DNA of 64,000 nucleotides. It comes from Camelus dromedarius. Its lineage: Eukaryota. Positions 9,601-62,255 of this stretch are shown here, piece by piece. The notes beneath the pieces are model-generated. The model worked only from the letters and a program-made list of their open reading frames with translations. It made no database searches and was not told where the DNA came from. A program made the translations under genes and the position numbers. Position 1 is the stretch's first letter. Each line of letters begins with the position of its first letter. The stretch spans positions 69,194,001 to 69,258,000 of the forward strand of contig NC_087436.1 of NCBI RefSeq assembly GCF_036321535.1, written 5' to 3'.

Positions 9601-11078
9601 TAAATAGGAACATGTTACCATAGGCAAAGGTTTAGCAGGTCTGCAGTGGAGGCCTCCTACAAATTCAAAATTTGGTAGCAATGGGTGAGGGAATTCAAAA
9701 TCCCAAAAGGTTCGAATGAGCCACATGTCAGCTTTCCCAATTGTCTCAAATAATGTAGTGGGTCTTCCTGAAAGGAAAAAACAAAGACAAAAAGAACAAA
9801 TGTTCGATCAAATGAGAATATTGCCATGTGTATATATTAAGCAATATTTGAAATGGAGCTTGGAATGATGTAGTCAAAGATGTCTGAAAGTGGCTGTTCT
9901 TTGATAAAGCAAATATATTTCTTTGTGACTCTACTATACTATACTATAATGTGGAAACTGAGCTACACAAGTAGAAACAATTTCTAAATGCCACCTAGTT
10001 ACCTATGCTACAAATATGGGCATAGCTCTTAAGTCTACATTTTTTTAAGAAGACATTTTAGTCACCTTTTTAAAGTTAAAAAAAGTTTAGTAAGATGGAT
10101 ACTTAGTTTCTTGGAGATGTCTTAGGTGCTTCAATTTATGGTTTATGACTCCTGGAGTGTCCTGCGCTAGTAATGGGCCTTACCCCATGAATTAATGTTT
10201 CCATAATTATTATGAAATTGATGAAACATTTTATACTTTCATTTTATCATTTCACTTATAAAACCCAAATTTCTGTGATGTTTTATTTATATGATTTCAT
10301 CTTCAAAGTCATTAGAAAAGTTAGGACTTTATGCCACCAACTGAAAACATGACTTACCTAGTACTTCACTGTAAAACTGATTCCACTTCTTCTCATTAAA
10401 TGTCTGGAACCAAAAGTCAAAGTAAAGTACGTACATCATATTTTTCACCCTCTCCATGAATGTCATTTGATCACCTAATTCTGACATGATAACCGGTACG
10501 TAGGATGGTGGGAGTGGAAGTTTTCCACCATACTTCTCCAGTAAAAAGCCCGGAGAGAAGCGGAGACTGTACACTAATGGGATTTGAAGTATCTCAGCCA
10601 GCAGCTCACCACAGGGCCCAATGGCATCTGCAAGAACGACGTCAAACCTTGATTCATGTAGTTTTGTCATAAGTTTCTTGTTCGAAACAAGATCTTTACA
10701 GCCTGTGATAAGAATATCAGAAAATTCCAAAAACGTACTTTGCACTGTTGAAAAGTAAGTCCAAAATGAATCTTTTGCAAAATTAATCCATTTTTCAAGC
10801 AAATGCTTGAAAATATACTTAAAATTATCTTTAGTTAAAAGTGTTGGAAAAATCTCAAATTTAATAGAAGATTGTGTATTGGGATTAATAAAAATGGAAG
10901 CTGAAGATATCAGGACAGTCACCTCATGACCCCTCGTGATAAGTTCATCCAGAATTGTATTCATATTAATCCAATGACTATATTCCACTGGCCACACGAG
11001 CACCTTCCCACAACTCCCAGAGCTAAAGTAGCAGTTCAGCTGCAGCAGCAGCAAAAGTGAGAGCCATTTCATGGACAT
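612..11078 (-). CDS. UGT2B: UDP-glucuronosyltransferase 2B family gene A, exons 1-4 only (exons 5-6 lie left of the window); join(complement 10358-11078, 9619-9767, 2628-2759, 612-699)
   Basis: Exon sizes 721/149/132/88, GT-AG junctions, open frame throughout; paralogous to gene B at an offset of about 39.2 kb. Confidence 0.95.
2628..2759 (-). CDS. UGT2B: UGT2B gene A exon 3
   Basis: [48 protein letters not shown] flanks; 132 nt. Confidence 0.96.
2895..3460 (-). mobile_element. Old L1 (L1MB-like) 3' end fragment; paralogue at about 42130-42700
   Basis: Typical L1M 3' UTR antisense text (tttaccatcttagtcattcctaagt, ttcatccatgttgt, ggaccgtatggtaactctatt). Confidence 0.7.
4568..4760 (-). mobile_element. 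Short L1 3' end fragment with (TA/CA)n; paralogue at about 43815-43990
   Basis: gaagtatagtcagtttacaatgctgtgttaatttctggtgtacagc matches the 3' end of the L1 near 14090. Confidence 0.75.
5260..7300. mobile_element. Old L1 with inverted structure: 3' end on minus (about 5260-5660) joined to an ORF2 fragment on plus (about 5665-7300); paralogue at about 44490-46520
   Basis: Antisense L1MA-type 3' UTR switches abruptly to sense, A-rich ORF2 (RT region) sequence. Confidence 0.75.
8600..9320. mobile_element. Degenerate MIR/L2 remnants in intron 2; paralogue at about 47815-48535
   Basis: tatgtgccagaca...caactgtatgag is MIR-like; gcctgtattctgtctttccagtagactgt is L2 3'-like. Confidence 0.45.
9619..9767 (-). 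CDS. UGT2B: UGT2B gene A exon 2
   Basis: Acceptor CAG|GA; (G)[49 protein letters not shown]; donor GTAAC; 149 nt. Confidence 0.96.
10358..11078 (-). CDS. UGT2B: UGT2B gene A exon 1 (signal peptide and aglycone-binding domain)
   Basis: ATG at 11078 (AAG ATG context); [36 protein letters not shown]...FYSEVLG; donor G|GTAAG; 721 nt. Confidence 0.96.
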
Positions 11079-14553: not shown

Positions 14554-14589
<36 letters not shown>

Positions 14590-21421: not shown

Positions 21422-21453
21422 CGTGTGCGTGTGCGTGTGTGTGTGTGTGTGTG
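21422..21453. repeat. (TG)n microsatellite
   Basis: Direct inspection. Confidence 0.85.
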
Positions 21454-29213: not shown

Positions 29214-29389
29214 TTGTAACTTAAATTTTATAACTACATATTTACAGAAAATGCTGTTATTATAATCATTTACAGTTGAAATATGACACACTAAAATATG
29301 TTACATAAATGAGTACTAAAATTATTTCTATGCATTTAAATGGGAACAGTGCATGTAAATTACATTTCACTATATACACCAACTACGTT

Positions 29390-29580
29390 TAGTGCTTTAC
29401 AAGGTTAGTATAATCAGACTTTCAACAACTCCATGAAGTGGTTAATACCATTACTTTATCTGCATTTCACTGATGGTGCAGCTGAATCATAGGAAGGTGA
29501 CATGCCCAACCCCGCATAACTCTGGTAGTTTTGTAGACTTAAATCCATGCTACCTGAGTACAGAGTGTAACCACTTAACC
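29390..29580 (-). mobile_element. MIR remnant; paralogue at about 59670-59870
   Basis: gtgctttac...caactccatgaagt...catttcactgatg resembles the MIR core. Confidence 0.55.
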
Positions 29581-29694
29581 GTTTTGATACAATGGATCCC
29601 CTTTTTGGGTTGTAGTTTTTCAAAATGTAACATTGATAATTTCCCATTATTAAGCTATATCTTAAATTTTAATATTATGGCAAAAGTATAATTT

Positions 29695-30350
29695 TTTTCC
29701 AGTTGTATATTGCTGCATAAAAAAATGCCCTTAAAAGTAGGGATTTAGAACAGCAGTACTCATTTTATTTTTATCTATTACAGTTGTGGGTGTTGTGTAG
29801 GCTCAGCTAAGTGATTATTGTAGGATGTTTCTCAGGTGGTTACAGTCTTGTGGCTGGGGTTGTAATTATGTAGACATAGCTGGTGATTGGTTTGAGAAGA
29901 CTCAATCTGTTGGAAGGTCAAAGTTCTGGGACTTCTTAGGCATATCTATGAACTTTCCACAAATGATCATTTACGACGGGGAGTTTGGGTGTGGTGCAGG
30001 GCTCCATGCTGAGTATGGAGCTACGGAGGGAGAGAGAGACAGAGAGTGAGACAAAGAAAGAAATAGACAATGTGTTGCATTTTGTAACTGAGTATTGGAG
30101 GTTAGACTGGAACATTTGTGAGACAGCAACAAAATTTTCTTTTTAAATTTTTCTTTTAAAGTTTTTGGAGGGTAGGTAATTAAGTTTATTTATTTATTTT
30201 AATGGCAGTACTGGGATTTGAACCCAGGACCTTGTGCATGCTAAGCATGCACCCTCCACCTGAGCTATACCCTTCCCTTCCCAGCAACAAGACTTCCCAA
30301 AGTTCAAAAGAGAGGAAATTTCTTGATGGGAGAGGTATCAAAGATTTTTG
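29695..30350. mobile_element. MaLR (MLT1-like) solo LTR remnant interrupted by a SINE; paralogue at about 59985-60640
   Basis: tattgctgcataa...aaaagtagggatttagaacagca...ggctcagct and cttgatgggag are MLT1-type motifs. Confidence 0.55.
30140..30281 (-). mobile_element. tRNA-derived SINE (camelid Vic-1-like) with TSD cagcaacaa
   Basis: Minus strand GGGAAGGGTATAGCTCAGGTGGAGGGTGCATGCTTAGCATGCACAAGGTCCTGGGTTCAAATCCCAGTAC, then an AAAT-rich tail; cagcaacaa on both sides. Confidence 0.88.
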
Positions 30351-32973: not shown

Positions 32974-33253
32974 TTACTCCTTTTTTTCCTTCTTTCCTGC
33001 TATAGGAAACTTCTGGCAGCAAAACAGACAGCATTTTGTGATGACCAAGAGAGCAGCTGCCACACAGGCCAGCAGGAACCCAATCACATCCAGAGAGTGG
33101 TACTGGTACCAGGTGAGGTCGTGAGCGGCTGGCCGCAGGTGCTTGGCTCCTTTGTGGCGCATGACAAACTCGATCCAGAAGACTGCTCGGTCCAGGGGCT
33201 TTATAGGTTGATCGTGTTGAATGGTTGATAACCTCATAGCATTCTGCTTGTAG
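32974..33253 (-). CDS. UGT2B: UGT2B gene B exon 6 (TM helix, ER-retrieval tail, stop)
   Basis: [92 protein letters not shown]; 280 nt. Confidence 0.96.
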
Positions 33254-36200: not shown

Positions 36201-39200
36201 AAATTATGCGACTGACAAGGGCTTAATTTCCAGAATATACAAACAGCTCATACCACTGAATAACAAAAAAACAAACAACTCAATTCAAAAATGAGCAGAA
36301 GAGCTAAACAAATATTTCTGCAATGAAGACATATAAATTGCCAATGAGCACATAAAAAATGCTCAGTATAGGTAATTATCAGAGTAATTCAAATCAAAAT
36401 TACAATGAGGTATCATATCACACTGGTTAGAATGGCCATCATTAAAAAGTCTGCAAAGGACAAATGGTAAAGAGGATGTGGAGAAAAGGAACCCTCCTAC
36501 TCTGTTGGTAGAATGTAGTTTGGTGCACCCATTTTGAAAAACAGTATGGAGATTCCTTAAAAAACTAAAGCAAAAGTTACCATATGATCCAGCAATCTCA
36601 CTCCTGGGTATATATTTGGAGAAAACTCTAATTTGAAAGCTTCATGTACCTCAGTGTTCATAGCAGCACCATTTACAGTAACAAAGACATGGAAGCAATC
36701 TAAATGTCCATGGACAGATAATTGGATAAAGAAGTTGTGGTATATATATATAGAATCATACCCAGGTATAAAAAAGAAAAGAATAAAATAATGCCATTTT
36801 CAGCAACATATATGGATCTGGAGATTGTCATAAAGACAGGATGGAAGAAAGAAAGACAAATACCATATGATATCACTTATATGTTGAATGTAAAAAAACT
36901 GACACAAATGGACACATCTACAAAACACAAACAAATACACAGACATGGAAATTGAACTTAAGTTTACTAGAGGGAGTGGGTTGGAAATGGAGGATAAACC
37001 AAGGATTTGGAATTTGCAGATATTAACTACTATGTATAAAATAGATAAACAACAAGGTCTTATTGTATAGCTTAGGGAACTACATTTATTAACTTCTAAT
37101 AGCCTATAATGAGAACAATTATGAAAAAGGATATATATAAACACACACACACAAACAAACGCATACATATACATACGTACATCATACAATAACTGAAACA
37201 CTATGAAACACCATAAATTAACACTACATTGTAAACCGACTATGTCAGTTAAAAAAATAAAATAACACTGCTATTAAAGCCAAAATGTCAACTTTGCTAT
37301 TATTACGAACACATTCACAAAAAGTTTTCTATTCAAAGTCATTATGAAACAAAAGGGAGAAAATACATACAGTAGTTGTGATAATAATGGTAATAATATT
37401 ACTGAAATTCATGTAAATCCTCAAATGATTTGGAAACCAAATACGATCGCTTTGAAATAGGAATATCCAAACATGTTTTCCAAATAGACAAATAGAAGTA
37501 TAACCAAAATATCTATGAATATACCTACATTCATAAGTAGTCTCTAAATAGTTGTAATTGGGTAAATTAGAAAGATATAGTTGCTTCCATTTATCAGGGA
37601 TGGGATCAAAATATTAGCACAGACTTTGAGATACAGAGAAGAAGCTATCCATCACCAGTGAAGTGGGAGGGGAAACAAAAGGGTGGTGGACTAGGAGATA
37701 CAAACTTTGGATGCAATATGTGTTCAAATATGTTTTGAGCAACAATGGGAAAATAGCCAATAAGTTTTATAACTGTTAAAGGAAAGTAACCTTTCAAAAT
37801 AATATGCAACTAATTAAAAAAAAACAGGAATATCCCAGCATATCTCTTCCAAGTCACTTTCTGATTTCAGTTCTTCCAAATAGTCAAAAAGAGTTATAGC
37901 AAAAAGAACTAAGAATATACCTATGATTTTAAGTAGTGACTACATAGTTGCAGTTGGGTAAATTAGAAGGTTTTGGTTGTTTCCCTTTTATCAGTGATAA
38001 GATCAAAATATTAGCACAGAAAACTTGGGAATTGCTAAATGTAATGAGAAGTTGAGATGGAGTATGTCATGGTGGTTTACTGAAAATAGACATCTTAGAA
38101 GAGCTTAAAATATTTGAGGAGTTCTCATGCTGAAAGAAAGTCATAACTGCGGATGAGTACTCTTACAACGTCATGATTCCCTACTTGAGCTTTGTCCTTT
38201 ATGCTTCCTCTTAATTCTTCTTTCACCATTTCAGTGAGTCTTCTCATTCTAATGATGAGCTCTTTCAAAATTTCTCCATTTTCCTTAAATTTCTGAATAA
38301 GCTTTCTGCTAAAACCATTGCAAACAAACTTAACGTGACACTCACAGTAGGTGATTGTGGACTATTTAAAGCCCTGTGCAACTCTTACTCCTCATTGTGT
38401 TTATGTGAAGATGCATTGCTACCTCCCTGGCCTCCTTATGAGAACTTCTCTAGACAGAGTATGTAGTAGAAAAATATACATATGTACTCACGAAGGATTA
38501 TTAATGACTTGGTTCAATGCATTGAGCAAATCTGTTGTTGACATTGTGTCCAAGTCCAGTCTGGCAGCTGCCCCCTTGGCCGTCATGTGAGCGATGTTAT
38601 CGGGTTGGTCAGCAAACAAAGGAATGCCCACCATAGGGATCCCGTGGTAGATGGCCTCATAAATGCCATTGGCTCCACCATGAGTTATAAAAGCTTTGGT
38701 TTTTGGATGACCTAGGATTGAGTGAATTTCAGTAAAATGATTAATTAATGTTAGAAATCAAATGAGAACTGGCCATTACAAGGCAGTGAAAGAAGCAGTG
38801 TCCTTTCGATAACAGATGATTATACACATGAAACTGCATTTCAACTGCTTTCAGAACTCAGATCAGGAAGCCACTCAGTCTGCTGGAGAGGGAAGTGAAG
38901 CCTTCATGAAAGGAGTGCTGTGTGAGTTGAATTCACAAATGTACTCCAGATTGTCAGGTGAACAAATGGAAAGAACATTCTGGGTGAAAGAAACCACAGA
39001 GCAAGAAAGGGGGAGGATGTGTCAAAAATACAGTCTCTTAAGGAAATAGTGAAGTCATTTAGTCTGATAGGAAGGGTGTCAAGGCAACAGGAAGGGGAAT
39101 GTTCGTGCACTGGGACCAGAGGAAGGAAAAGCTACATTTTATCATGAAATGTGTTATAACTTCTTGAAAACATTGTGAAGTATTTTCCTATAGAACATGG

Positions 39201-42200
39201 GGAGTCACTGGTAATAAAAAGGAGCTGCTGTATTTCAGGGGCATTTAAAATACCCATAAGATGGGAAAAGATAGATGTAAGGAGAGAATTTATAGGCAAA
39301 GCAATAATCCCAGATGTTCTTGATAATTTTACTGTGAGAAGTAATTACAACCAAAATAAAGATTCTGTCCGTAAGAGATGTGACTCTTTAATAAAAAGTC
39401 AACTATTACGTAGAGAAGAAACTTATTGTTACCAGGGGTAAAGAGGGTGGGAAAGGGTAAGTTGGGAATCGGAAATTTGCACCTCTTGGAGAGTGATCGA
39501 ATTGTTGGCCATCTCGATTGTGGTGGATGTTTTATTGGTGTATACCTCTATCAAAATTCATCAAATTGTACATCCGAAAAATCTGTAGTTTACTGTACAG
39601 GAATCGTACCATAATAATGGTGTTAAAAAAAAGCCAACCTTTATATTTTATTTGTTTTCCTCCAGGTCAAGAGAGAATAATGAAGATTCAGAGTGTTCCT
39701 TTTGCATGCTTGAATAATATGTTCTGGATAAGTTGGTTTCCTGTCCCAGTGCTGTCACTCCCTCAGCTGTTACCCTTGTTTCCAACATTTGTTCTCCCAG
39801 GTCTCACCAAGAAGGTCGTTCTGGGGGATCCACTTGTACAGCCGAGTATTGGGTCCTAAGGTATCTGGTTTCTTGCCATGGTATCTCCAAAGAACCTGTT
39901 AGGGTGAAGTAGATAGCTTATTCATGAGTTGAACTTCAAAGTTATAGCACGTTAGAATTCTAAAGAGATGAAAAGACATCCAGTTAAATGCCTTCCATAC
40001 GACAGGTCAGGAAATGAGGACAGCAGATCCTAAGTAGAGATGACTAGTAATGCACTGACATCAATAGGAATACCCACATTCTGTGTACTTATTTTTATGT
40101 TCAATGAGGTATGGAATGAATCATGACATATCACACATGATGTCATTGACAAATGAATTTTTCAATGACAAATTCAAGTATTTATGAAATTGTTAGGTAG
40201 TCTGGATTCTAGTGAAAAAGCAAAACAGTGGCAAATTACTAATAATCTACACATTTGTTTTGCTTTATTTTATATACTAGCTCTTATTTTCAAAGTTGTT
40301 ATTTGCTGAGTTATTTCTTATCGACTCTTAAGGAATGGAGTTTACGTATATCCACTCGTTAATGTGACAAGTTATTTTATTAGAATTTTACATGTTTTGA
40401 TTTACTAATAGAAAGTACCTGCAGTTAGCCACTTAAGAGAAGTAAGTATTTCTGCTTATTTATAATTTATTAATAATAAGACAATTAATGCTGCTTAGAA
40501 AGTAAAACTTCTTTTAGATTACAAATTGTTAAGCGCTTTTTTAAAAAAAAAAAAGAGAGAATTGGTATTTTTTGACATAAATCCAGATTATTACCAGTAT
40601 TAGTAGGTGTGAAAACATTTAAGTTTAGAAAGGAGGAGCATGTGGTAATTTACAAGTAACAATAAGGTATTGGAAAAGCTCCAAAAGTGGGATGCTAAAA
40701 TTATTCAGCTGACCCTGAACACTTCAACAGTGAAGCACAGTGCATTGACAGCAGTGGTTAATGCGGTTTTCATATTCAGCACCAAAATAAGCCACCCATT
40801 TTGGATTTCCAAGTAATTCTTACACATTGGATTATAATTTCCTGGTGTCCAATTTCTATTTGCTGTGTGAGTGAAAGTGACGTTATGTTCTCAGCAAAAA
40901 ATTAGCTCAGTTGTTTAAGAGAAGACTACAATATCAGATAGTAAAGTAGGAGTAGGTCACAAATAACCAAAGATCCCAGGTGTATTTTATTTTGTAGAGA
41001 GTAAGTTACTGCTGTATAATATGGGGAAGGAGGCAGTAGAATCTTTTCCATGCCAGTCTTCCTTATGCTTGACTTTCTCAAATAGTCCATTCTCCCTCCT
41101 CAGTCAGGAAGAGTAATCTGATAGGCTGGATGCAGAGTCCGTTATAGTCCACCCTTTACAGTGCACAGGGTTCACCTTCAGGGCAGAACCCCATCTTCAC
41201 TGTTTCTCTTTTATCTTCCTGCTTCAGGCTTTGGTAGGACCAAGGCACCCAGGGCAGGCTGATGTTTGTTTTTGTGTAAATCATGGTGCCTGACTGGGTG
41301 TCTGCAGGCAGCTTGGGGAGCCCTGATCATCTTTTCTCTGAATAGCACCCTGAAAAGCACACTGAATAGATCTGTTCCAAAATTTAGGGAAAATAAAGGC
41401 AGCCAGGATTACCTGGCAAGTATAAACTGCATAGCACATTTCCGACTTTTATCAATATTGCCCAATGTTACTGTGCTAGTACAATTACTGTTAAAATTTA
41501 ACTCCTGAGAACTTCTGTGTGTGTACTGTGTCCTCAGGAATCCTTCAAGGAAAGCAGTGATGACAAGGCAGAATTTGGTGATTTCTCTACCTGCCCACAG
41601 TACCATTATACTAACCAGATTTCGCACTGCATCTCTCATGTATATTTAATTGATTATAGTGTGTATCCAAAATCATTGTCAAGACACTGTCTGTATTATT
41701 GCAGCACCTGCTATGTATATTCTGGCTTTTAAATATTTGAGACATGTTGGGGCTATCATAGTAATTTACCTTTCTTGCAAAGTATGTTTATAGTCAAACT
41801 TTTTACAAGATTTAACTGTCTGATTTTATAGTTGTCTACTATTATGTTTCTTTATCTACCTTTTGTGGAATCTGGGCAAGGGCTGATGCAATCACATTGG
41901 CTCTTTCTTCTGTTATGTTAGTGACAATCGACCCCAAAGTAAACACCACAATACCATCTTCTCCTGAGCTCTGGACAAACTCTTCCATTTCCTGTCAAAA
42001 AAGAATTTTCTCCATTACAAATGAGCAACAGCATAGCAAACGTTATTGAAAGGATTGCTACAAACAGCTGAATAGTAAAAATTCTGATACAATCAGGAAT
42101 TATTTCAGTAGTGGCTTTTTGAAAAAGAAACCTGATAAAATATATGTAACATACAATTTACCATCTTAGTCATTCCTAAGTCTGTAGTTCAAAAGTATTA

Positions 42201-45200
42201 AGTACATTCACATTGTGGAACCGATCTGTAGAACTTTTTCATCTGGCAAAACTGGAAGTCTGTGCCCATTAAAAACTCCATTTTCCTCTTTGATCCCAGC
42301 CCCTGGCAATCATGATTCTACTCTACGTTTCTACAAATTTGCTCAGTCCACATACCTCATATACGTTGATTTGTATAGTACTTGTCTTTTTGTTACTGGC
42401 TTACTTCCCTTATCCTAAGGTTCATTCATGTTGTGTCATGTGTCAGAATCTTCTTTTAAAGACTGAGTGATATTCGAGTGTTTTTGTATTCCGCACTTTG
42501 TTTATTGCTTTATCTGTTCATGGAGAATTGGGTTGCTTCAAGTTCTTGGCTCTTGTGAATAATGCCTTTATGAATATGGTGTGCAAATATCTCCTTGGGG
42601 TGCTAGGTTCAGTTCTTTTGTATACACATCCAGAAGAGAAATAGCTGGACCATATGGTAATTCTATTTTATATTTTTTTTTTTTGGAAACTCCTCAAAAG
42701 TTTTCAGTAATGGCTTTGTTTTAATAGACCTCATCCCTAATGTCCTTGGGAAGGAGATGTGTGATGTGAGGTCGGTTTCTTCTGTTATATGTATGTGTGC
42801 AAATGTGTGCATATAAGGAAGAAATGAGATAGAGGCAGTACACAGTAGTGAGGAGGACACACTGGTAAACAGTGTTAGACTCTTCATCAGTCATGTTATT
42901 AATTACTAACATAGATCCTTGGAAGGAGGTCACACAGCAGGATCTTAACTCATCTTTAATTCTTTCTTATTATAGTTCTACTAAATCCTTTGTTTATTCC
43001 AGGCCCTTTCTAGAGAATTAGTTTGGAGTAGTCATTAGTATTTCATTTCCCTGACTGTGATCACTAAGAAAAAGTTAGGATTTGAATGACTTTATCCTTC
43101 TCACAGATCTATAATCCTCATACCTTAACTTTAAGTTACTCAGAAGTTCCCCAAATCTGTCTCTAAATTACTAGTCACTGACATTGAGGAGTCTGGTATT
43201 ATAGTTTAGAATTTCTGTGAAACAGCCCTGTGTGTCCTATTAATAAGCAAGAGATATACTTGTGTAGTTGCATTTCTGAGTGAGCATACTGCTGGGTTTG
43301 TTTCCATGGGACACCCTCTGCTCTGAAATCACCTTGTATATTTGCTGTCACAGTAGGATGTGCTATGTGCAAGGGGCTGTGAGGGACCCTCATCATCACC
43401 TCACTAAGTCCCTGGGGGAGCACCTGCCCCACAGTGGGAGAGGAACACCAGGCTTTCTGTAGCAGAGATCTGGTCACCTGTGAGTAGTTCATGTCAGACT
43501 AAATAAAGCTCCTGGTGAAGCTGTATTTGATTGGAATTCTCTCAGAATTATTTTGTCTTGTAGTCCTTGACCCTTTCTCACTAAAAAATTGTTACTGTCT
43601 GCACTAGAATAATTACACATTGTTCAACATACTGTATTACAAAAAAAGTGCAAAGGAGCAATATTTTCTGGATCTCATTAAACCATATACTCCTGTTTTT
43701 AAAATATCTTTCTGCTGTTTTACATTCATTATTCTTTTTTCTCTGGAAAATTCTGACCTAATCCCTCCATTTAAAATGAATATTTTATTATCATGATTAA
43801 TGTCATAAAACTACTTTTTTATTGAATTATATTCAGTTTACAGTGTTGTGTTAATTTCTGGTGTACAGCATTGGTATTAATTCATATATATATGACAGAC
43901 ACAGACACACACATTCCTTTTTATATTCTTTTTCAGTATAAATTATTTCAAGATATTGAATATTGTTCCCTGTGCTAAACAATAGGAACCCTATTAAAAA
44001 CTGCATTTAAAACTATTTTCAATAGGAACAGGAAAATAGGCAATTTGTTTCAAAATTTAACTTTGCATTCTATATTGTGTAGATCATTCTTCAAAAGTAC
44101 AATTTCACCCTGATGATCAGTTTTGCTATTAATGTCTCTGAACTTCCTTGTGACTTTCATGGTGCATCTAGGTAATGTGTGTATTTCCAGTGACCTGTCC
44201 CAGCATTTAAGGTTACCTGTGTTCTTTGTTTTTCCCTCATTGGTTTGCTCCCCAAAGCTGCCTCATCTCTCCTGTAGAAGATGCATCCCTATCATATTAT
44301 TGTAATACATCCTCTATTTAAAAGTTAATCACTGTTGTGGACTGGTTATTCTCATTGTCTGACATCTGTATGAAAATAATATAAGGTCATGACATTAAAG
44401 TATTAAAAATACGAAAAATTATTAAATTAAAATAAGATATATTCTACCCTCTGTCTAGGGATATCCTTAGTTTAAAATTTATAAATATTTTTTAATGATG
44501 AAATATGTTAGAGGTATAACATTATTTCAGTTGTATAACTTACTGATTTGATGCACTTATAGATGGTAATAGGATTGCCATCTTGATGATAGGTTGCACC
44601 TCTGTCATGTCACATGATTATTATTTTTCTTTTGTGGTTGGAATAATTAAGGTCTAGTCTCTCATCAAGTTTGATGATTAGAATATATTGTTGTCTATAC
44701 TCACTATCCTTTACCTTAAATCTCCAGGGCTAATTTACTATGAGATGAAAGTTTATAATAACATTGAATAACATCTCTCCTTTTCTCCCACCCCCTAGCC
44801 CTTGGTAATCACCATACTATTTTCAGTTTATACGACTGACTCTTTTAGATTTCAGACAGAAGAAGTATAATACAGAATTTTTCTTTCTCTGCATGTTCCA
44901 AAATAGAAACAATGGTGACAACCTTCAGCTAGACTAACTAAAGAAGAAAGAAAACTCAAATAATGAAATTCGAAATGAAAGAGAAGACATTACAACTGAG
45001 ACTCCAGAAATTCACTGGATCGTAAGAGATTTCTATGAAGAATTCTATGGCAAGAAAATATATAACCAAGAAGAATGGCTACATTTCTAGAAACAAGAAA
45101 GAATTAGAAAATCTGAACAGTCATAATAAGTAAAGATACTAAATCAGTAATCACAAGCTCCTGACACAGAAAACCCCAGGACCAGATGACTTCACTGATA

Positions 45201-48200
45201 AATTCTATCAAATATTTAAGGAATATTTAATGCCAGTCCTTCAAAAACTCTTCCAAAAAAACCTAAAGAGGAGGGAGGGAACACTTCAAAATTCATTCTT
45301 CAAAGCCAGTATATGTAGATACCAAGTAGATAGGAACATTCCTGGGAAAGAAAGGTATAAGCCAATATCCAGAATGATTATAGATTTAAAAATTCTCAAT
45401 ACAGTGTCTGTTCGCTAAATTCTAGAACACATTAATAGTACTATATACCATGACCTAGTGTGATTTACCTGTAAGAGGCAAGGAAGTTTCAACATGCTGA
45501 AATCAATAAATGAAATACATTGCATTAACAGAATGAAAGGTAAAATAAGTTGATAATCTCAATAGCTGTAGGAAGAGAATTTGACAAGATACAAAATCTC
45601 TTTAAGATGAAAAACCTGACCATGTTGGGTATATAGAAGGAACATTCCTCAACAAAATAAAGGCTACATATGACAAACCCAAATCTAACATTATAGTCAA
45701 CAGTGAAAATATGAAACGTTTTTCTCTAAGATCAGGAAAAGGCAAGGGTTCCCACTCTCACACTTCCAGTCAACGTAGTACTAAAAGTCCCAGCTTAGAG
45801 CATCCAGGCAAGACAAAGAAATTAAAGACATCCAAATGAGAAAGGAAGAAGTAAAATTTTCATTTTTTTTGCAGATGATATGATTTTTTTGTATGCAAAA
45901 TCCCAAAGAGTCAACCAAAAGCTTTAACTAATGAACAAATTCTGTAAAGTTGCAGGATATAACATAAATTCAACATACAGAAGTCAGTTGCTTTTCTCTC
46001 TATTAATAATGAAATATATGAAAAATTATTCCATTCAACATAGCATGAAAAACAATAAAATAACTGGAAATAATTTTAGCCAATGAAGTGAAAAATCTGT
46101 ACAGTAATAATTACAAGACTTTGTTGAAAGAAGTGAAGAAAACACACAAAAAGGAAAGTCATCCAGTGTTCATGGATCAGAAGAATTAATATTGCTACAC
46201 TATCCACACTACCCAAAGCCAAAGGCCTCACACCTACCGATTCCAAAGTATTACTACAAAGTTGTAGTATTTAACAGTATGGTACTGCCCTAAAAATAGA
46301 GAAGTTGATCGACAAGTGAAACAGAATACAGAGTCCCAAATTAAATGCCTGCATATATAGTCAACTAATACTCAACAAGGGAGAGAACACCACCCACTGG
46401 GGAAATGGTAGTCTCTTCTTTTCTTCTAAGAAAACTGGATAAGCACATGGAAAAAAAATGATGAGACCCCTATTTTAGACCTCTCAAAAAATTAAATCGG
46501 AATGGATCAAAGACAAGATCAGGTATCATAATGTTCCTCAGTAATTTTCTGAGAACCTCATAATTAATGGAAAAGTTAGTAGTTTGAAGGAATAATTAAC
46601 AGAAAAGTTAGTAGTTTGAAAGTTAGTAGTTTGCAGACATTCTCTTGCATTCATCTCTTGTTTTGCAACTTAATAACAACAGCTACTATTACTAATATCA
46701 TTATATTACTATTCATCTTTCTATTTGTCCTTCTTTCTCTGGTCCTTTCTCTCCTACTAACACTGACTTGCTTGAAAGGAGAATGGGGATATCTTTGAAA
46801 AATGGAGTTAGATATAATTTTCACTGATTTTATTTCAGCCTTTGGACGCTGTGACAGTTTACCACTGAATACCAAAACAATTTGTAAACAAATGAGATAT
46901 TGTGTTTGACAGTTGAAAAAGATATGTTTCATTTTTCCACTAATAAGGAGTAATCAAAAAGGATCTCCTAAGAGATCACAAAATAGTTTGCTAAAGATTG
47001 CTTGCTTCCTATTTATATCTTGAATCAATTTAAAACAGCATGTCAATTTAAAACAGATTAGCTTCTTGCTTTCCTTCATAAGGAATAGTATCTTATAAAC
47101 TGAAGAGAATTTTTGTAATTTGAAACTATGGGTAGTTTTTGTATTTAAGTGGTAGAAATTATTTGGTCGTTACTGTTAGTGTGCAGAATTAATGTGCTTA
47201 TATACGCAGTGTACATTTTCTGTCTGCTCATTCTGTCAGCAGCTACAATGTTGAGACCCGTGTTCCTTAAGGGAGCTGTACTGAGGTTTTCTGTATGCTT
47301 AGTTTAGGCAGAAAACACCTGTTCTAATAGACTAATTTATATCTTTCATGCTGTAAGATGTAAAACTCCAGGATTTTAGATGAGGAATGGTTTAAACGCT
47401 GTTGTGGAAGCAAGGAAATGTTGGATTTGGTGCAGAAGTTGTTGGGGCATTCATTTGTATTTTTGAGGAAGGGTCCCTGGTGAAGAGCCTCAACCCTTAT
47501 AAAAAGTTTTTAGCTTGTAATCTTGCTCATCTGATTGCCCAAAACATGAAAAAATTCTCAACATTTAAGATTTTTAACTTAAGTGTATTAAATTATATTT
47601 TATTTAAATTCAGTTTTTAATAAATTTAGTATATGCTGTTATTAAATTTTTTGATTAAAAATCTTTTAAAATTTGCTTTTCAAGCACTCCATGTGCTATC
47701 TTCTCTCTAGGACTTTGCTAGAGCATATAGGTGTATTGGAAAATCAGTTCCTACTCAATTACAATTTAGATCCAGGTGGCTGGCACATGTTGGATTATTG
47801 ATAGTGTAATAGTAACAAAATAACAATAAAGACAATAGTTAATGTTTATTCTGGATCAGTATGTGCCAGACATTTTGGATGTTTCATGTGTACTAACAAC
47901 TTTTTTCCCAACTACAACTGTATGAGATTCGTACTGTTATTATGAGTCAGTATGGTCATGTCTGTATGAATATTGTAGTCTAGTTTTCCATCATTGTTGC
48001 CTGTATCTCTCAGCAAACCTGTGAAATGGTCTCCCTTTCTACTCTTACCCCTTCATAACCCAACCCAGTGACTACATCCTGTGTTTTTCTTTAAATGTGA
48101 TTGTACCTCTCCCTTTCTTAACACTCTTAATTTTTTCCCGAATGCCCCTATTAGATGCTTCACACTCCTTAGAATGTCTGTCTCCAGCTTAATTCTCCAG

Positions 48201-50309
48201 CACCATCTGTCTCTTTACTCAGCCTCTTCCTGTTCAGACTAAACTTGGACTTCTTGGGAACTGTCACTAACTACTCTCCCTGGCTGTCTTTTGTATCTTC
48301 CTCCACCCCTGACCTACCCCGTCTGCTTATTCCTGCACATGTTCAGATCTGACCTTAATTATCAAAGAATCAGAGATACTTTCTATGAATTCTGTGAATG
48401 TTTCCTTAGCATTGTGGTCTTCCCTTATTATAACACTCTTTACACAATGTTTACGACTTGCCTGTATTCTGTCTTTCCAGTAGACTGTCAGGTGGCAGAA
48501 ACTGTGTTTATATCATTCCTCTGCATATGAGCACTCACTTCTGGTATAGGCGAGTCCCTTTATAATTATTATTTTTATGACTGTCTGATGCTTCATTATG
48601 TGTTGAATAATGAAGGCTGTAATTTAACAGACATAGTGTCAAAGTCTCCCAGATGTCCCAATTTATTCTGTAATGGTAATGAATTTCACATACCTGTGCT
48701 AGTATAGAAATATGAGTTTCTAACTGACAAGTCACTTTATCTGGCTTCCCACATTTCTCTGCTGTATTAACCATTGTAAATAAAGAATGCATAAGTATTC
48801 CTATTGAAAATGCAAAGTGAAGACAACCACATAAATAGGAATATGTTACCATAGGCAGAGGTTTGGCAGGTCTGCAGTGGAGGCCTCCTACAAATTCAAA
48901 ATTTGGTAGCCGTGGTCGAGAGAATTCAAAATCCCAGTAGTTTCGAATGAGCCACATGTCAGCTTTCCCAACTGTCTCCAATAATGTAGTGGGTCTTCCT
49001 GAAAGGAGAAACAAAAGCAAAAAGAACAAATGTTCAATCAAATGAGAATATTGCCATGTGAATGTATTAGGCAATATTTGAAATGGAGCTTGGAATAACG
49101 TAGTCAAAGATGTTTGTACGTGGCTGTTCTTTGATAAAGCAAATATTTTTTTTTCTGTCTATACTATACTATAATGTGGAAACTGAGCTACACAGGTAGA
49201 AACAATTTCTAAATGCCACCTACATACCTATGCTACAAATATATGCATAGCTCTTAAATCTACCTTTTTTTTTTTATCAAGACGTTTTAGGAGGTTTCTA
49301 GTCACCTTTTTAAAGTTAAAAAGCAAAGTTTATTAAGATGGATATATAGTTTCTTGGAGATGTTGTACGTGCTTCAATTTGAGGTTTATGACTGCTGGAG
49401 TGTCCTGCGCTAGTAATGGGCCTTACCCAGTGAAGTAATTTTTCCATAATTATTATGAAATTGATGAAACATTTTATACTTTCATTTTATCATTTCACTT
49501 ATAAAACATAAATTTCTGTGACGCTTTATTTATACGGTGTCATCTTCAAAGGCATTAGAAACGTTAGGACTTCATGCCACCAACTGAAAACATGACTTAC
49601 CTAGTACTTCACTGTAAAAGTGATTCCACTTCTTCTCATTAAATGTCTGGAACCAAAAGTCAAAATAAAGTACGTACATCATATTTTTCACCCTCTCCAT
49701 GAATGTCATTTGATCACCTAATTCTGACATGATAACCGGTACGTAGGATGGTGGGAGTGGAAGTTTTCCACCATACTTCTCCAGTGCAAAGCCCGGAGAG
49801 AAGCGGAGACTGTACACTAACGGGATTTGAAGTATCTCAGCCAGCAGCTCACCACAGGGTCCGACGGCATCTGCAAGAACAACGTCAAACCTTGATTCAT
49901 GTAGTTTTGTCATAAGTTTCTTGTTTGAAACAACATCTTTACAGAGTTTCATTTGCATATCAGAATATTCCCACAAGATACTTTCAACTGTTGAAAAATA
50001 AGTCCAAAATGAGTCTTTTGCCAAATATGTCCATTTATCAAGCAAATGCTTGAAGACATACTTAAAATCATCTTTAGTTAAAAATCTCAAATTTAATAGA
50101 GATTGTGTATTGGGATCAATAAAAATGGAAGCTGAAGATATCAGGACAGTCACCTCATGACCCTTCGTGACAAGTTCATCCAGAATTGTCTTCATATTAA
50201 TCCAATGACTATATTCCACTGGCCACACCAGCACCTTCCCACAACTCCCAGAACTAAAGTAGCAATTCAGCTGCAGCAGCAGCAGAAGGGAGATCCATTT
50301 CATAGACAT
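32974..50309 (-). CDS. UGT2B: UDP-glucuronosyltransferase 2B family gene B, complete 6-exon CDS, 525 aa; join(complement 49601-50309, 48850-48998, 41860-41991, 39808-39895, 38492-38711, 32974-33253)
   Basis: Exon sizes 709/149/132/88/220/280 match the UGT2B architecture, all junctions are GT-AG and phases are compatible. Protein has signal peptide [14 protein letters not shown], catalytic His35 (PVEYSHW), the LADA Asp, the UGT signature [44 protein letters not shown], a TM helix and a KxKxx ER-retrieval tail. The individual member cannot be named by eye. Confidence 0.96.
33580..34325 (-). mobile_element. 5'-truncated L1 in gene B intron 5
   Basis: L1 3' UTR and ORF2 end on minus; TSD taggaaggaatt (33568-33579) / tagtaaggaatt (34326-34337). 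Confidence 0.88.
34485..34700 (+). mobile_element. MIR remnant
   Basis: gtggttaaaag...ttgaatcctgactctgac...cattgataaatggga...ggcatacagtag. Confidence 0.6.
35267..37259 (+). mobile_element. 5'-truncated L1 (about 2 kb), antisense to gene B, in intron 5
   Basis: ORF2 C-terminal peptides at 35443-36294, 3' UTR and A-tail; TSD aaataacactg (35256-35266 / 37260-37270). Confidence 0.92.
37630..37824 (+). mobile_element. Short old L1 3' end fragment with A-tail
   Basis: gagatacaaact...gggaaaatagccaata...ttataact...gtaacctt followed by poly(A). Confidence 0.55.
38492..38711 (-). CDS. UGT2B: UGT2B gene B exon 5 (UDP-sugar binding signature)
   Basis: (G)[72 protein letters not shown](S); acceptor TAG, donor GTGAG; 220 nt. 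Confidence 0.96.
39808..39895 (-). CDS. UGT2B: UGT2B gene B exon 4
   Basis: [29 protein letters not shown](G); 88 nt. Confidence 0.96.
41860..41991 (-). CDS. UGT2B: UGT2B gene B exon 3
   Basis: [44 protein letters not shown]; 132 nt. Confidence 0.96.
48850..48998 (-). CDS. UGT2B: UGT2B gene B exon 2
   Basis: (G)[49 protein letters not shown]; 149 nt; AG/GT flanks. Confidence 0.96.
49601..50309 (-). CDS. UGT2B: UGT2B gene B exon 1 (12 nt shorter than in A)
   Basis: ATG at 50309; [36 protein letters not shown]...FYSEVLG; donor GTAAG; 709 nt. Confidence 0.96.
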
Positions 50310-50366: not shown

Positions 50367-50407
50367 TTATATCCAAGGAGAAATCAATCAGGAATTTAAA
50401 ATACAAC
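50367..50407 (-). promoter_or_regulatory. Gene B proximal promoter: TATAA-like box, TGATTGAT (50383-50390), single degenerate HNF1-like site (50395-50407)
   Basis: Minus strand reads GTTGTATTTTAAA-TTCC-TGATTGAT; positional homologue of the gene A promoter. Confidence 0.6.
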
Positions 50408-51584: not shown

Positions 51585-51665
51585 CTCTGTGTCTCTGTGT
51601 GTGTGTGTGTGTGTGTGTATGTGTGTATATATATGTATGTATATGTATTATGTATATATATATAT
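51585..51665. repeat. (TG)n/(TA)n microsatellite at the L1 tail
   Basis: Direct inspection. Confidence 0.85.
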
Positions 51666-54635
51666 ATTTACAATGGTGTGTTAATTTCTGGTGTACAGCA
51701 TAATACTTCAGTCATATAAGAACATACATACATACATATTCATTTTAATATTTCTCACCATAAGTTACTACAAGATATTTAATATAGTTCTCTGTGCTAT
51801 ACAGTATTAAGTTGTTGTTTATCTATTTTATGTGTATTAGTTAGTGTCTCCAAATCTCAAGCTCCCAATTTAACCCTTCTCACTCCCTCCTCCCCCTCAC
51901 CCCGTAACCATAAGTTTGTTTTCTATGTCTGGGAGTCTGCTTCTGTTTTGTAAATAAATTTGTTTCTTGCTTTTTTCTTTAGATTCCCCATTAAGTAATA
52001 TCATATGGTATTTTTCTTTCTCTTTCTGGCTTACTTCACTTAAAATACATTCTTCAGGTCTATCTATGGTACTGCAGATGGTATTATTTTATTATTTGTT
52101 GTGGCTGAATAGTATTCCATTGTATAAATATAGCACAATTTATTTATCCAGTCATATGTTGATGGATATTTAGGTTGTTTCCATGTCTTGGCTATTATAA
52201 ATAGTGCTGCTATGAACATTGGGGTGTGTATGTCGTTTTGAATTAAGATTCCTTCTGGATATAGTCCCAGAAGTGGGATTGCAGGATCATGTGGTAAGTT
52301 TATTTTTAGCCTTTTGAGGAATCTCCATACTGTTTTCCATAATGGCTGTACCAAACTACATTCCCACGCACGGTGTAGGAGAGATCCCTTTTCTCCTCAG
52401 CCTCTCCAGCATTTATTGTTTGTGGACTTTTGAATGATGGCCATTCTCACTGATATGAGGTGATACCTCATCATAATTTTGATTTGCATTTCTATGGTAA
52501 TTAGTGATATTGAGCATGATTTTCCTGTTTCATAATGGCCATTTGTATGTCTTCATTGGAGAATTGCTTGTTTAGGTCTTCTGTCCATTTTTGGATTGGG
52601 TTGTTTGTTTTATTCTTATTAAGTTTTGTAAGCTGTTTATATGTTCGAGATATTAAACCTTTGTCCCTCTCATCTTTTGCAAATACTTTCTCCCATTCAG
52701 TAAGTTGTCTTTTTGTTTTGCTTATGGTTTCCTTTGCTGTGCAAAAGCTTGTAAGTTTAATTAGGTCCCATTCGTTTATTTTTGCTTTTATTTCTTTTGT
52801 TTGGATAGATTGCCCTAGGAGAACAATGCTGAGATTTATGTTGGATATCTTTTTGCCTATGTTTTCTTCTAAGAGGTTTACAGTGTCTTGTCTTATAAGT
52901 AAGTCTTTAAGCCATTTGTAGTTTATTTTTGTGTATGGTGTGAGGGAATGTTCTGACTTCATTGATTTACATGCAGCTGTCCAGTTTACCCAACACCATT
53001 TGCTGAAGAGACTGTCTTTACTCCATTGTATGTTCTTGCCTCCTTTTACAAAGATTAATTGACCAGAAGTTTGTAGGTTTATTTGTGGGCTCTCTATTCT
53101 GGCCATTGATCCATATATGTTTTTGTACCAATACCATGCTCTTTTGATTACTACAGCTCTGTAGTATTGTCTGAAGTCTGGGAGGATTATTCCTCCAGCT
53201 TCATTGTTTTTGTTTAGTAATGCTTTGGCAATTCTGCATCTTTAGTGATTCCATATAAATTTTAGGATTATTTGTTCTAACATTCTGTGAAAAGTGTCCT
53301 GGGTAATTTGATAGGGATTGCATTGAATCTGTAGATTGTTTTGTGAAATATGGCCATTTTAACAATATGAATTCTTCCAATCCAAGAGGAAGATATCCTT
53401 CCATTTCTTTGTATCATCTTTGGGTTCCTTCTTCATTGTTTTACAGTTTTCAGTTGTTAGGTCTTTCAACTTCTTGGTTAAGTTGATTCCTGGGTATTTT
53501 ATTTTTTTGATGTGATTTCAATGGGATTGTTTTTTTCTTCTCTTTCTGATATTTTGTTATAGTGTGTAGAAATGCAACAGATTTCTTTATATTAATTTAG
53601 AGTTCTCTACATAGAGTATCATGTCATCTGCAAATAGGGATCGTTTTACCTCTTACCTTACATGTTGGGTAATTTTGTTTTTCTTGTCTGATTGCTGTGT
53701 GTAGGACCTCACATCCCATATTAAATAGAGGCTTTGAGAGTGGGCATTCTTGTCTAGTACCTGAATTTTGTGGGAAGGCTTTCAGCTTTTTCTCTGTTGA
53801 GTATTATGTTGGCTGTTAGTTGTTGGTTATTGGTATGTTGTAAATGGCCTTTATTACATTGAGATAGGTTCCCTCTATATTCACTTTGATGAGAGTTTTT
53901 ATTCACGAGTGAATGTGACTTTTCTCAAATGCATTTTTGTGTGTATTAAGATGATCATTATGGTTTTTGACTTTTCTTTTGTTTATGTGTGTATCACACT
54001 AATTGATTTTCCTCTGTTGAGCCATTCTTGTGGCCCTAGAATAATTTCAAATTGATCAGATGAATGATCCTTTTAATGTATTGTTGGATTGTGTTGGCTA
54101 ATATTTTGTTGAGAATTTTTGCATCTGTATTTATTAAAAATACTGGCATGTAGTTTTTTTTTTTTTCACAATATCTTTGTCTGGTTTTCGTATCAGGGTA
54201 CTAGTTGACTTGTGGAATGAATTTGGAGGTGTTCCATCCTCTTTAATTTTTTGGAATATTTGGAGAAGGCTAGGTATAAGTTCTTCTTTATATGATTGGT
54301 AGAAGTCCCCTGTCAAGTCATCTATTCCTGGACTTTTGTTTTCAAGGAGTTAAAAATTATATTGCACATTTTATTGCGCTTCTAGCTATCAGTCTCTCAA
54401 ATTGCCTGTTTCTTCTTGACTCAGTCTTGGAAAGTTGCATATTTCTAGAAATTTGTCCATTTCTTATAGGTTGTCCAATTTGTTGGCATATAACTATTTA
54501 TAGTATTCTCTTATGATTTTTTTTTGCATCTCTGTGGTGTTGGTTGATACTCATTTTCTTTCGTTTATTATTTTGTTTTTATTTTAGGTCTTCTTTATTC
54601 TTGTTGAGCATGACCGAAAGATTGTCTGTTTTATC
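51665..54635 (-). mobile_element. L1 3' half, apparently chimeric (younger 3' part joined to an older ORF2 part)
   Basis: Well preserved ORF2 C-terminal ORFs at 52064-53106; beyond about 53330 the sequence tracks the older L1 at 24215-25550. Confidence 0.85.
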
Positions 54636-54639
54636 TTTT

Positions 54640-55772
54640 TTTATTCTTTTTTTTTTTTTGATTTATAATCATTTTACAATGTTGTTTCAAATTCCAGTGT
54701 AGAGCACAATTTTTCAGTTATACATAAACATATATATATTCATTGTTCACATTTTTTTCTCTGTGAGCTACCATAAGATCTTGTGTATATTTCCCTTTGC
54801 TGTACAGTATAATCTTGTTTATCTATTCCACAATTTTGAAATCCCGTCTATCCCTTCCTACCCTCTGTCCCCTGAGCAACCACAAGTTTGTATTCTATGT
54901 CTATGAGTCTGTTCTTGTTTTGTATTTGTGCTTTGTTTGGTTTTTTTTTGTTTTTTTGTTTTTTTTTTTTTTAGATTCCACATATGAGTGATCTCATATG
55001 GTATTTTTCTTTCTCTTTCTGGCTTACTTCACTTAGAACGACATTCTCCAGGAGCATCCATGTTGCTGCAAATGGCATTACGTTGTCAGTTTTTATGGCT
55101 GAATAGTTCCATTGTATAAATACACCACATCTTCTTTATCCGGTCATCTGTTCATGGACATTTAGGCTGTTTCCATGTCTTGGCTATTGTAAATAATGAT
55201 GCTGTGAAAATTGGGGTGCCAGTGTCATCCTGAAGCAGGGTTCCTTCTGGATATATGCCCAGGAGCGGGATTCCTGGGTCATATGGTTAATCTATTCCTA
55301 GTCTTTTGAGGAATCTCCATACTGTTTTCCACAGTGGCTGCACCAAACTGCATTCCTACCAGCAGTATAGGAGGGTTCCCCTTTCTCCACAGCCTCTCCA
55401 GCGTTTGTTGTTTGTGAATTTTTGAATGATGGCCATTCTGACTGGTGTGAGGATTTAACTGATGGTAGTTTTGATTTGCATTTCTCTGATAAGTAGTGAT
55501 ATTGAGCATTTTTTCATGTGCCTATTGATCATTTGTATGTCTTCCTTGGAGAATTGCTTGTTTAGATCTTCTGCCCATTTTTGGATTGGGTTGTTTATTT
55601 TTTTCTTATTAAATCGCGTGAGCAGCTTATATATTCTGGAGATCAAGCCTTTGTCGGTTTCATTTGCAAAAAATTTTTCCCATTCTGTAGGTTGTCTTTT
55701 TGTTTTACTTATGGTGTCCTTTGCTGTACAGTAGCTTGTAAATTTCATTGGGTCCCATTTGTTTATTCTTGT
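54640..55772 (-). mobile_element. Young 5'-truncated L1 nested in the older L1
   Basis: Poly(T) at 54646-54659, 3' UTR, and ORF2 end peptide [11 protein letters not shown]...[18 protein letters not shown]. Confidence 0.9.
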
Positions 55773-56059
55773 GTACATCCCTCACTTTAAATCTGTGTGT
55801 ATCTTTTGCCTTTAACTATGTCTCATGTAGGCAGCATATTGCAGATTTTTTTTTCATTTTTCAGTTTTATTATGTAAAATTGTTACAATTTGCACATATA
55901 GAGTATATTGTATGTAACTACATATACAGAATATGTTGCACATATTGTTTAATAATTTACATACATGTTATGTTTATTACTTCTAAGAATGTTAAGAACT
56001 TTAGCTTTTTTAACTAAATAGTTATCAAAGGAATAAAGCCGACCACAACATAAGAATTA

Positions 56060-57235
56060 ATTCAAAAAGATACACAACCCTGCTTTTAACAGCAACGTTC
56101 TTTATAATTGCCAATAAATGGAAGCATCCTAAGTGCACATCAATAGATGAATAGATAAAGAAGATGCAGCTTCTATATGTAATAGACTACAACCCACCCA
56201 TTTGCAGCCCTTCATTCACTTTTTTTTTTCTTTCACTTCAAAAACCAGAATTTGATAACTGGCATAAACATTTGCATTGCATCAAAAACAACAAAACACC
56301 TAGAAATAAACTTAATCAAGGAAGTTATATATACTCTGAAAACTGTAAAACATTGATGAAAGGAATTGAAGATGATACAAAGAAATGGAAAGATAGCTTG
56401 TGCTCTTGAATTGGAAGAATCAACCTTATCAAAATGGCCGTACTACCCAAGGCAATCTGCAGATCCAACGCAACCCCTGTCAAAATACTCATGACATTTT
56501 TCACAGAACTAGAACAAGCAATTCCAAAACGTGTATGGAACCATAAAGGACCTGGAACTACCAAAGCAATGTTTTTGGGTCTTCTCTTCTTCTTCTTTGT
56601 CTTCGTCGTCTATGTCGTCGTCTTCATCTTCTTTGTCGTCGTCATCGTCGTCTTCTCCTCCTCCTTCTCCTCCTTCTTCCTCTTCCTCATTCTTCTCTTC
56701 CTTCTTCTCTTTCCTCCTCCTCCTCTTCTTCTTCTTTTATTTTTTTAAATAGACTTTAGCGTTTTAGAGCCATTTCAGGTACACAACAGAACTAAGCAGA
56801 ATATACAGAGTTCACACATAGCCCTCCCCACCCACCCATATATATATACTCCCCTACCCTCAATGTCCCTCATCAGTGTGGCATATTTGGTACAGTCGGT
56901 GAACCAACATGGGCACGTTATTATCAACCAAAGTCTATAGTTTACATTAGGGTTCACTCTTGATGTTGTACATTCTGTGGGTTTTGACATATGCATAATG
57001 ACATGTAGCCATCACTATAGTATCATACAGAAAAATTTCATTGGTGTAAAAATCCCTTGTGCTCCATCTATTCAGTCCTCCCTCCCTCCCTCTCCCCAAA
57101 TCCCTGGAAACCATAATCTTTTTATTGTTTCTGTAGCTGTACCTTTTACAGAATGTCGTTTGGTTGTAATTGTACAGTTTGTAGCCGAAATTTATAAGGA
57201 ACCACAAAAAGACCCCGAATAGCCAGAACAATCTT
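56060..57235. mobile_element. Mosaic of L1 fragments: plus-strand ORF2 pieces (about 56060-56170, 56270-56572, 57186-57235) and a minus-strand old L1 3' end (about 56745-57180)
   Basis: MAVLPKAICRSNATPVKI peptide; L1MB/MC-type 3' UTR (TSRVNPNVNYRLW read-through). Confidence 0.7.
56578..56735. repeat. Compound trinucleotide microsatellite (CTT/CGT/CCT)n
   Basis: Direct inspection. Confidence 0.9.
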
Positions 57236-62055: not shown

Positions 62056-62255
62056 NNNNNNNNNNNNNNNNNNNNNNNNNNNNNNNNNNNNNNNNNNNNN
62101 NNNNNNNNNNNNNNNNNNNNNNNNNNNNNNNNNNNNNNNNNNNNNNNNNNNNNNNNNNNNNNNNNNNNNNNNNNNNNNNNNNNNNNNNNNNNNNNNNNNN
62201 NNNNNNNNNNNNNNNNNNNNNNNNNNNNNNNNNNNNNNNNNNNNNNNNNNNNNNN
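62056..62255. other. Assembly gap (200 N)
   Basis: Run of exactly 200 N. Confidence 1.

Follow-up and report, generated by a model that had tools for sequence, protein, structure and literature searches.

A compensated pair of deletions in the first exon of a dromedary UGT2B31-like gene and its possible effect on the enzyme

Does a UGT2B gene in which part of a core strand is read in another frame still encode a working enzyme, and did the two deletions responsible arise together or one after the other? A locus of the dromedary, Camelus dromedarius, raises both questions. We analyzed a stretch of 64,000 nucleotides (assembly GCF_036321535.1, contig NC_087436.1, positions 69,194,001 to 69,258,000), called here the window, which contains two UGT2B genes, A and B, in an 11.6-kb duplicated block with 91% identity. 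Well-supported compensated frameshift pairs are few in vertebrates, and their origin in one event or two is an open question. If gene B is active, the core strand of a drug-metabolizing enzyme would be replaceable by an out-of-frame peptide, which would bear on how the dromedary handles drugs and plant toxins. If it is impaired, it is an ordinary decaying duplicate, annotated as working because its frame is open. Among the papers listed by a search of the open literature none deals with gene B, and in the supplements of PMC12127551 and PMC7381958 only one orthogroup row and one UGT2A1 row matched.

Both genes lie on the minus strand. Gene B begins with an ATG at 50309 and comprises exon 1 at 49601..50309 (709 nt; signal peptide and acceptor-binding N-terminal domain), exon 2 at 48850..48998 (149 nt), exon 3 at 41860..41991 (132 nt), exon 4 at 39808..39895 (88 nt), exon 5 at 38492..38711 (220 nt; UGT signature) and the coding part of exon 6 at 32974..33253 (280 nt; transmembrane helix and stop). 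Each of these exons fits exactly to P0001, which is the RefSeq protein XP_064341190.1, named “UGT2B31-like”, from Camelus dromedarius. The boundaries of all six exons are GT-AG, the 1578-nt ORF gives a 525-aa product that equals P0001, and the poly(A) signals are intact. The Pfam domain UDPGT (PF00201) covers residues 24-520. In UGT2B enzymes the His35/Asp151 pair has a catalytic role. H35 and D147, the latter in the position of D151, are present in the B protein (the UGT2B7 residues His35 and Asp151 are given in Table 1 of PMC9412022). The first-pass annotation had described the ORF, the splice sites, His35 and the UGT signature as intact, and the exact six-exon fit together with the Pfam match bears this out.

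Gene B shares with the mammalian UGT2B compared (PF00201; alpaca XP_006212554.2) the six exons, the signal peptide, the H35/D151-type pair and the transmembrane tail, and its C-terminal UDP-sugar domain is 79-84% identical to the solved domains of human UGT2B7, 2B10, 2B15 and 2B17. Only B among them has a shortened and rewritten beta-3 segment. The five human UGT2B chains found represent the C-terminal domain only, so the affected part is without a solved reference.

Exon 1 of gene A (10358..11078, minus strand) is 721 nt long; gene A is an intact paralogue with the ancestral length. Aligned with it, the 709-nt exon 1 of gene B has exactly two gaps, both in B, of 1 nt and 11 nt. The 1-nt deletion falls after codon 70 at 50099..50101 (minus strand), where AA of gene A is reduced in B to a single A at plus-strand position 50100. 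The 11-nt deletion has its junction at 50080..50084 (minus strand) in a T-run, which is an A-run on the plus strand. Between the two, codons 71-76 (50082..50099, minus strand) are read in the shifted frame and give LLNLRF where the ancestor has ten residues, which belong to strand beta-3 and to the stretch that links it with the next helix. The net change is -12: six codons are out of frame and four residues are gone. The 1-nt deletion alone leads to a stop at codon 81 and the 11-nt deletion alone to a stop at codon 79, so each single deletion is a null, as had been proposed for an intermediate. The compensated double frameshift was thus described correctly from the start, wherever we checked it.

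Both deletions touch short runs, an assembly gap of 200 N (62056..62255) lies 12 kb away upstream of B, two paralogues are missing from the assembly, and A and B hardly differ over 2 kb of intron 2. These features would suit an error at homopolymers, in the consensus or the assembly, or paralogues that have been collapsed. As independent evidence, public sequencing runs were checked over 49950-50250 by 26 sampled 31-mers. The check listed 24 runs, best holders first; four possible source runs were set aside, leaving 20. At least 25 of the 26 words (0.96-1.00) are held by 10 of the 20 listed non-source runs (9 samples, 5 studies); all 26 are held by three listed runs (2 samples, 2 studies), and seven further samples hold 25. 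Four listed run rows have no words at all. The listing ranks the best holders and thus gives no allele frequency. Junction-spanning 31-mers make up 43 of the 271 possible ones, so that the probability of having sampled none is 0.009; one given junction would be missed by the sampled words with a probability of 0.07-0.08. Gene A shares only 24 of the 271 31-mers of B, and a run with gene A alone would score about 0.09.

The RefSeq protein P0001 is not independent support for the deletions. A second dromedary assembly provides the B-type fragment P0258, which begins past the deletion site and carries the B-private residues H230, S263 and R266 downstream of it. Its start at M133, skipping the site, was considered as a sign of a one-deletion allele and rejected, because the A-type model P0128 starts at the equivalent Met though A is intact in that species. 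The consensus error that the first-pass annotation had considered is unlikely, given that all 26 words occur in two samples, each from a different other study. The deletion pair is unlikely to be an assembly error, and an artefact of the homopolymers or of collapsed paralogues is, as an account of the whole locus, very improbable. A pattern scan of metagenome contigs returned 0 stretches with camelid alleles, and there was no truncated camelid B peptide among 24 matches for proteins of 55-175 aa (best 79% identity).

The length of the affected segment is strongly kept among relatives. Starting from 303 proteins, we retained 284 with the beta-2 motif, which gave 205 distinct segments, 202 of them with both ends aligned. 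The span from H51 to F86 is 36 residues in 198 of the 201 non-B segments; the others have 39, 35 and, in a truncated fragment, 31, and B has 32. None of 74 non-camelid rows is gapped internally between positions 55 and 110. Alpaca has three types, of which P0122 (93%) is nearest to B and keeps the full-length segment; at the protein level this ancestral state is found in P0122 and in every other camelid paralogue. Both observations confirm that B is the derived state, as had been concluded from exon 1 of gene A. The full segment of P0122 also makes the deletions younger than the split from alpaca. Dromedary and two-humped camels separated 5-8 million years ago, as given in PMC4884201.

In trees of 13-15 rows (isoforms and most fragments left out) B groups with A, and the orthology of B to P0122 is an open node, which gene conversion blurs. 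P0001 is a mosaic with parts like alpaca P0122 and others (around residues 115-126 and 401-416) like the C-type paralogues, a pattern to be expected if gene conversion has occurred repeatedly or if ancestral sequence has been retained. Over about 2 kb the second introns of A (2760-9618) and B (41992-48849) differ by 0-0.2%, and elsewhere by 2-13%; the near-identical tract reflects either recent A-B gene conversion or a local assembly collapse.

The dromedary UGT2B genes considered here number about four and are nearly identical; besides A and B they include two C-type paralogues, C1 and C2 (P0133 and P0253). No gene of this assembly matches P0133 or P0253; a different assembly of the dromedary has the C-type proteins, and so do two-humped camels. 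The 200-N gap probably hides both genes, a placement that we infer. Proteins of A, C1 and C2 were recovered from Bactrian and wild camels, and no B-type protein came from either species in protein searches over 55-2000 aa and cluster look-ups. According to PMC12127551, NCBI gives no protein to genes labelled as pseudogenes. In two-humped camels B may be a pseudogene, deleted, or collapsed in the assemblies.

This absence bears on two readings in which the deletions came in succession. In the first, the 1-nt or the 11-nt deletion made B a null in the Camelus line, the second deletion reopened the frame of an already dead gene by chance, and B is now a transcribed pseudogene. A pseudogene in the sister species would explain why its protein is missing there while A, C1 and C2 are found; the missing database protein may equally mean gene deletion or assembly collapse. 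In the second reading a single-frameshift null became fixed, two-humped camels perhaps still have it, and the dromedary regained an active enzyme through the second deletion. This reading too fits the absence of the B-type protein, and a stop-free window of 62 nt was available for the rescue of the frame; however, it needs an unseen intermediate plus an activity that is so far only putative.

As the first-pass annotation stated, the 11-nt deletion lies between T-runs with microhomology. This amounts to 4 nt against gene A, and at least 4 nt occur in only 4 of the 464 possible 11-nt deletions of exon 1. The Phe at position 80 of alpaca suggests that the true ancestor may have had a microhomology of 6 nt. 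Through the 1-nt deletion a stem of 5 bp becomes a perfect inverted repeat of 6 bp (50083..50104; arms 50083-50088 and 50099-50104 around a 10-nt loop), one arm of which overlaps the T-run of the 11-nt deletion. The DNA hairpin has an energy of -2.6 to -3.0 kcal/mol in B vs -0.7 to -0.9 in A. Of the 466 single-nucleotide deletions that exon 1 could undergo, 22 would produce a perfect inverted repeat of at least 6 bp. The hairpin is weak, and its test was chosen after seeing the sequence. Its overlap with the microhomology modestly favours one clustered event, and it speaks against the restoration of an enzyme in two steps. A single four-point template switch was also tried as the source and rejected, since with gene A as a stand-in ancestor there is no solution for both deletions and the longest reverse-complement piece is the 6-nt arm.

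By a rough estimate with assumed target sizes, only about 0.5-1.5% of second lesions in a dead gene would be rescuing indels, which argues against a frame reopened by chance. Two published studies point in different directions here: PMC8935012 describes paired compensatory frameshifts as arising mostly sequentially via a rare intermediate, which favours the restoration of activity by a second deletion, while Walker et al. 2021 (PMC7954356) regard single events as the most parsimonious explanation of tight mutation clusters. We estimate that one event probably made both deletions.

The comparison with these studies places gene B in a known class. The pairs of PMC8935012 (e.g. ARHGAP6, SPATA24 and RASSF4) have in common with B that the frame is restored by a pair of deletions with a few codons between them and that a short stretch in a new frame is found in a single species and in a dispensable young gene. 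In agreement with the pCFM rule of that study, the frame-disrupting changes of -1 and -11 in one coding sequence of B sum to a multiple of 3, and relatives have the ancestral state without either indel (at the protein level). The second deletion, of 11 nt, does not pass the 1-2-nt indel filter, which is a quality criterion and not a part of the concept; PMC8935012 scored only indels of 1-2 nt, so a pair of 1 and 11 nt was outside its search. The terms “UGT” and “camel” have 0 occurrences in its main text. The study reports 468 vertebrate candidates, five of them of high confidence. For the high-confidence set it asks that a pair be common to more than one species or be backed by mRNA or protein; the pair in B is seen in several samples of one organism. 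Its cases favour weakly conserved segments, whereas the change in B affects a core strand of average conservation whose length is invariant in UGT2B. Quasi-palindrome correction and short-range template switching, as described in PMC7954356, share with B that two clustered changes make a local inverted repeat more perfect than it was. However, a four-point switch of that kind explains at most the 1-nt loss, and a slip between direct repeats must be added. The pair in B is a real, derived and fairly clean case of the described class.

Among the non-B segments E75 is found in 197/204, F or Y at position 77 in 197/204 and P78 in 188/204, and the conserved E75 is lost in B. To look beyond close relatives we used 143 new 50%-cluster representatives of distant UGTs, 72 segments of which were scorable. 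The span from F74 to F86 is 13 residues in 65 of them, 11 in four and 9 in one internally deleted sequence; B has 9, and its strand-to-helix link is four residues short of the length kept in these 65. The loop before beta-3 is variable in distant UGTs, mostly 21 or 23 residues, and this natural variation of 2-3 residues could absorb part of the loss. The total span from H51 to F86 is 33-38 residues in 71 of the 72 segments, and B is one residue under the shortest natural class (33). The reindeer UGT2B P0079 has a 3-residue duplication at the end of strand beta-3, the sole insertion there among close relatives.

The loss of the FPT motif, noted earlier, counts for less than the length, since a proline at this position occurs in only 24 of the 72 distant segments. 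Its absence in the other 48 speaks for an active B. So does the structure: the suggestion that the shifted peptide may still form a beta-strand is supported by the AlphaFold models, which predict a strand at 73-77 in both B and alpaca P0122, followed by a helix at 81-94 in B vs 83-98 in P0122. In residues 71-80 the confidence is 58 for B vs 85 for P0122. The models are weak overall (mean pLDDT 62-63, pTM 0.48-0.49) and are too weak and too alignment-driven for judging stability.

The hydrophobic/polar alternation of the native strand is indeed retained in the shifted peptide, as was noted before, since the second and third bases are the same in four of the five native codons. The match is modest and weaker than was stated. 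A match of 5 of 5 is seen in 10% of 740 stop-free shifted windows (hydrophobic pattern 10-26%), the BLOSUM similarity is equalled by 17-25% of shifted windows, and the family profile gives the shifted peptide -13.0 bits vs +16.8 for the native one. The difference in hydropathy is rarer: one as small occurs in 2.2% of the 740 windows for the 5-residue core and in 7.5% for six residues.

These data bear on the reading in which B arose in the same way (at once, or through an intermediate that was short-lived and never fixed), folds, and is active under purifying selection with a rebuilt beta-3 and a possibly shifted substrate range. The modelled strand, the hydropathy and the frequent absence of the proline support it; the span under that of 71/72 distant and 198/201 close segments, the lost E75 and the profile score count against it.

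Between A and B dN is 0.047 and dS 0.097, a ratio of 0.49 (p=0.002; 519 codons). Outside the indel B has nine private residues, three of them at conserved sites (Q230H, P263S and F502L); gene A has 19, two of them at conserved sites, and each alpaca paralogue has 1-2 conserved-site changes. In the tree B and the Camelus A clade have branches of equal length (0.049), and dN/dS on the B branch is about 0.16-0.57 if synonymous changes are split evenly, which is a rough bound. The lack of excess decay and the A-B ratio indicate that B was not dead for most of its history, and both are in line with an active enzyme. However, dN/dS also averages over the period that preceded the deletion, and it cannot demonstrate function from then on. 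For a gene that died, the probability of no further lesion is 0.38 at a neutral branch of 0.005 (an assumed length) and 0.02 at one of 0.02, where 24 amino-acid changes would be expected vs nine private ones observed. Thus a long death is excluded, and the intact ORF is weak evidence for function if the death was recent.

HNF1-alpha controls UGT2B7 and UGT2B17 (PMC2835698), and a study of HNF1 and Pbx2 on UGT2B17 is cited in PMC10985967. We scored HNF1- and PBX-like motifs against the consensus as printed in Table 1 of PMC2835698. The proximal promoter of B (50367..50407, minus strand) contains a degenerate HNF1-like 13-mer at 50395-50407, an intact PBX-like TGATTGAT at 50383-50390 and TATAA at 50367-50371. 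The HNF1-like site has five mismatches that affect both outer half-sites, and the adjacent PBX-like and TATA motifs are intact. Gene A has two HNF1-like 13-mers (-125 and -97) with three mismatches each, and in a neighbouring UGT2B pseudogene a comparable site with four mismatches lies at -97/-98. Sites with three mismatches occur in the window at 0.34 per 400 nt, so the element is identified by its position and not by its score. By this comparison the degenerate site of B appears to be derived, which weakens the case for an active gene. In gene A a tandem duplication at 11163-11203 gave rise to two HNF1-like elements.

Two RNA-seq runs of one study hold B-type words at 0.89 and 0.81 (21-23 of 26), far above the level from A alone, and were counted in favour of an active B. 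They lack 3 and 5 words, and the expected number of junction words is 4.1. The missed words come close to this number, so these runs show B-type sequence and not the junction, and the stretch may be held as DNA. The RNA runs X19 (0.39) and X20 (0.15) were left out as evidence, and X16 and X18 were taken as RNA by guess.

Taken together, the span, the conservation of E75 and F/Y77, the drop of model confidence, the three further paralogues, the HNF1-like site and the three private changes at conserved sites speak for impairment. Against it stand the intact ORF, splice sites and poly(A) signals, the absence of excess decay, the dN/dS of 0.49, the words in RNA runs and the modelled strand. Judged from these sequence data, B is somewhat likely to be impaired or dead, and an active enzyme of whatever origin is possible but falls short of being likely. 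Among the full readings we tentatively prefer, at less than even confidence, the one in which B is a weakened, redundant UGT2B paralogue whose deletions probably arose in one event. An active B that kept its function throughout or nearly so is rather unlikely, a gene that was already dead when its frame reopened is unlikely, and a true restoration from a fixed null is quite unlikely.

For the weakened paralogue we propose the following course. Gene B is a real UGT2B31-like dromedary paralogue, one of about four near-identical copies. After its lineage left that of alpaca, both deletions most likely came from one short stretch of error-prone synthesis where the DNA is rich in T/A. On the antisense strand the polymerase would slip between two T-runs 11 nt apart and then fold back; within 25 nt, on the same strand, one base would be dropped while a small fold-back hairpin was perfected. 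The net change of -12 would keep the frame and let the allele escape nonsense decay, and the allele could spread because sister genes cover the job of B. The protein probably forms strand beta-3 with the new sequence, minus E75 and four strand-to-helix residues, and the likely outcome is a weakened or inactive enzyme under relaxed selection.

In the most far-reaching version of a sequential origin, one of the deletions would have made B null in the common ancestor of the Old World camels. Bactrian and wild camels would still carry B as a pseudogene with that deletion alone, and in the dromedary it would have been revived as a glucuronosyltransferase that works, has a core strand written by the frameshift and differs in its substrate range. 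We regard this as a long shot; if true, it would be a compensated frameshift whose null intermediate is still alive in a sister species.

Several further UGT sequences were seen in the same assembly. A third UGT2B exon 1 (L006, G000:C1:69268156-69268869), 10 kb past the window, is a pseudogene with two in-frame stops. Four near-identical, more distant UGT2 exon 1 copies (L010-L013, G000:C1:69.29-69.40 Mb) follow with a spacing of about 33 kb. Five tandem UGT1A-like first exons (L014-L018, G000:C4:92.701-92.724 Mb), three of them with identical scores, are spaced by about 5.5 kb and represent either a recent expansion or an assembly repeat. Between and inside the genes of the window (13400-32700, 33600-37200 and 51600-64000) there are many decayed repeat fragments, recognizable as ORF pieces and self-matches, which we take to be LINE-1.
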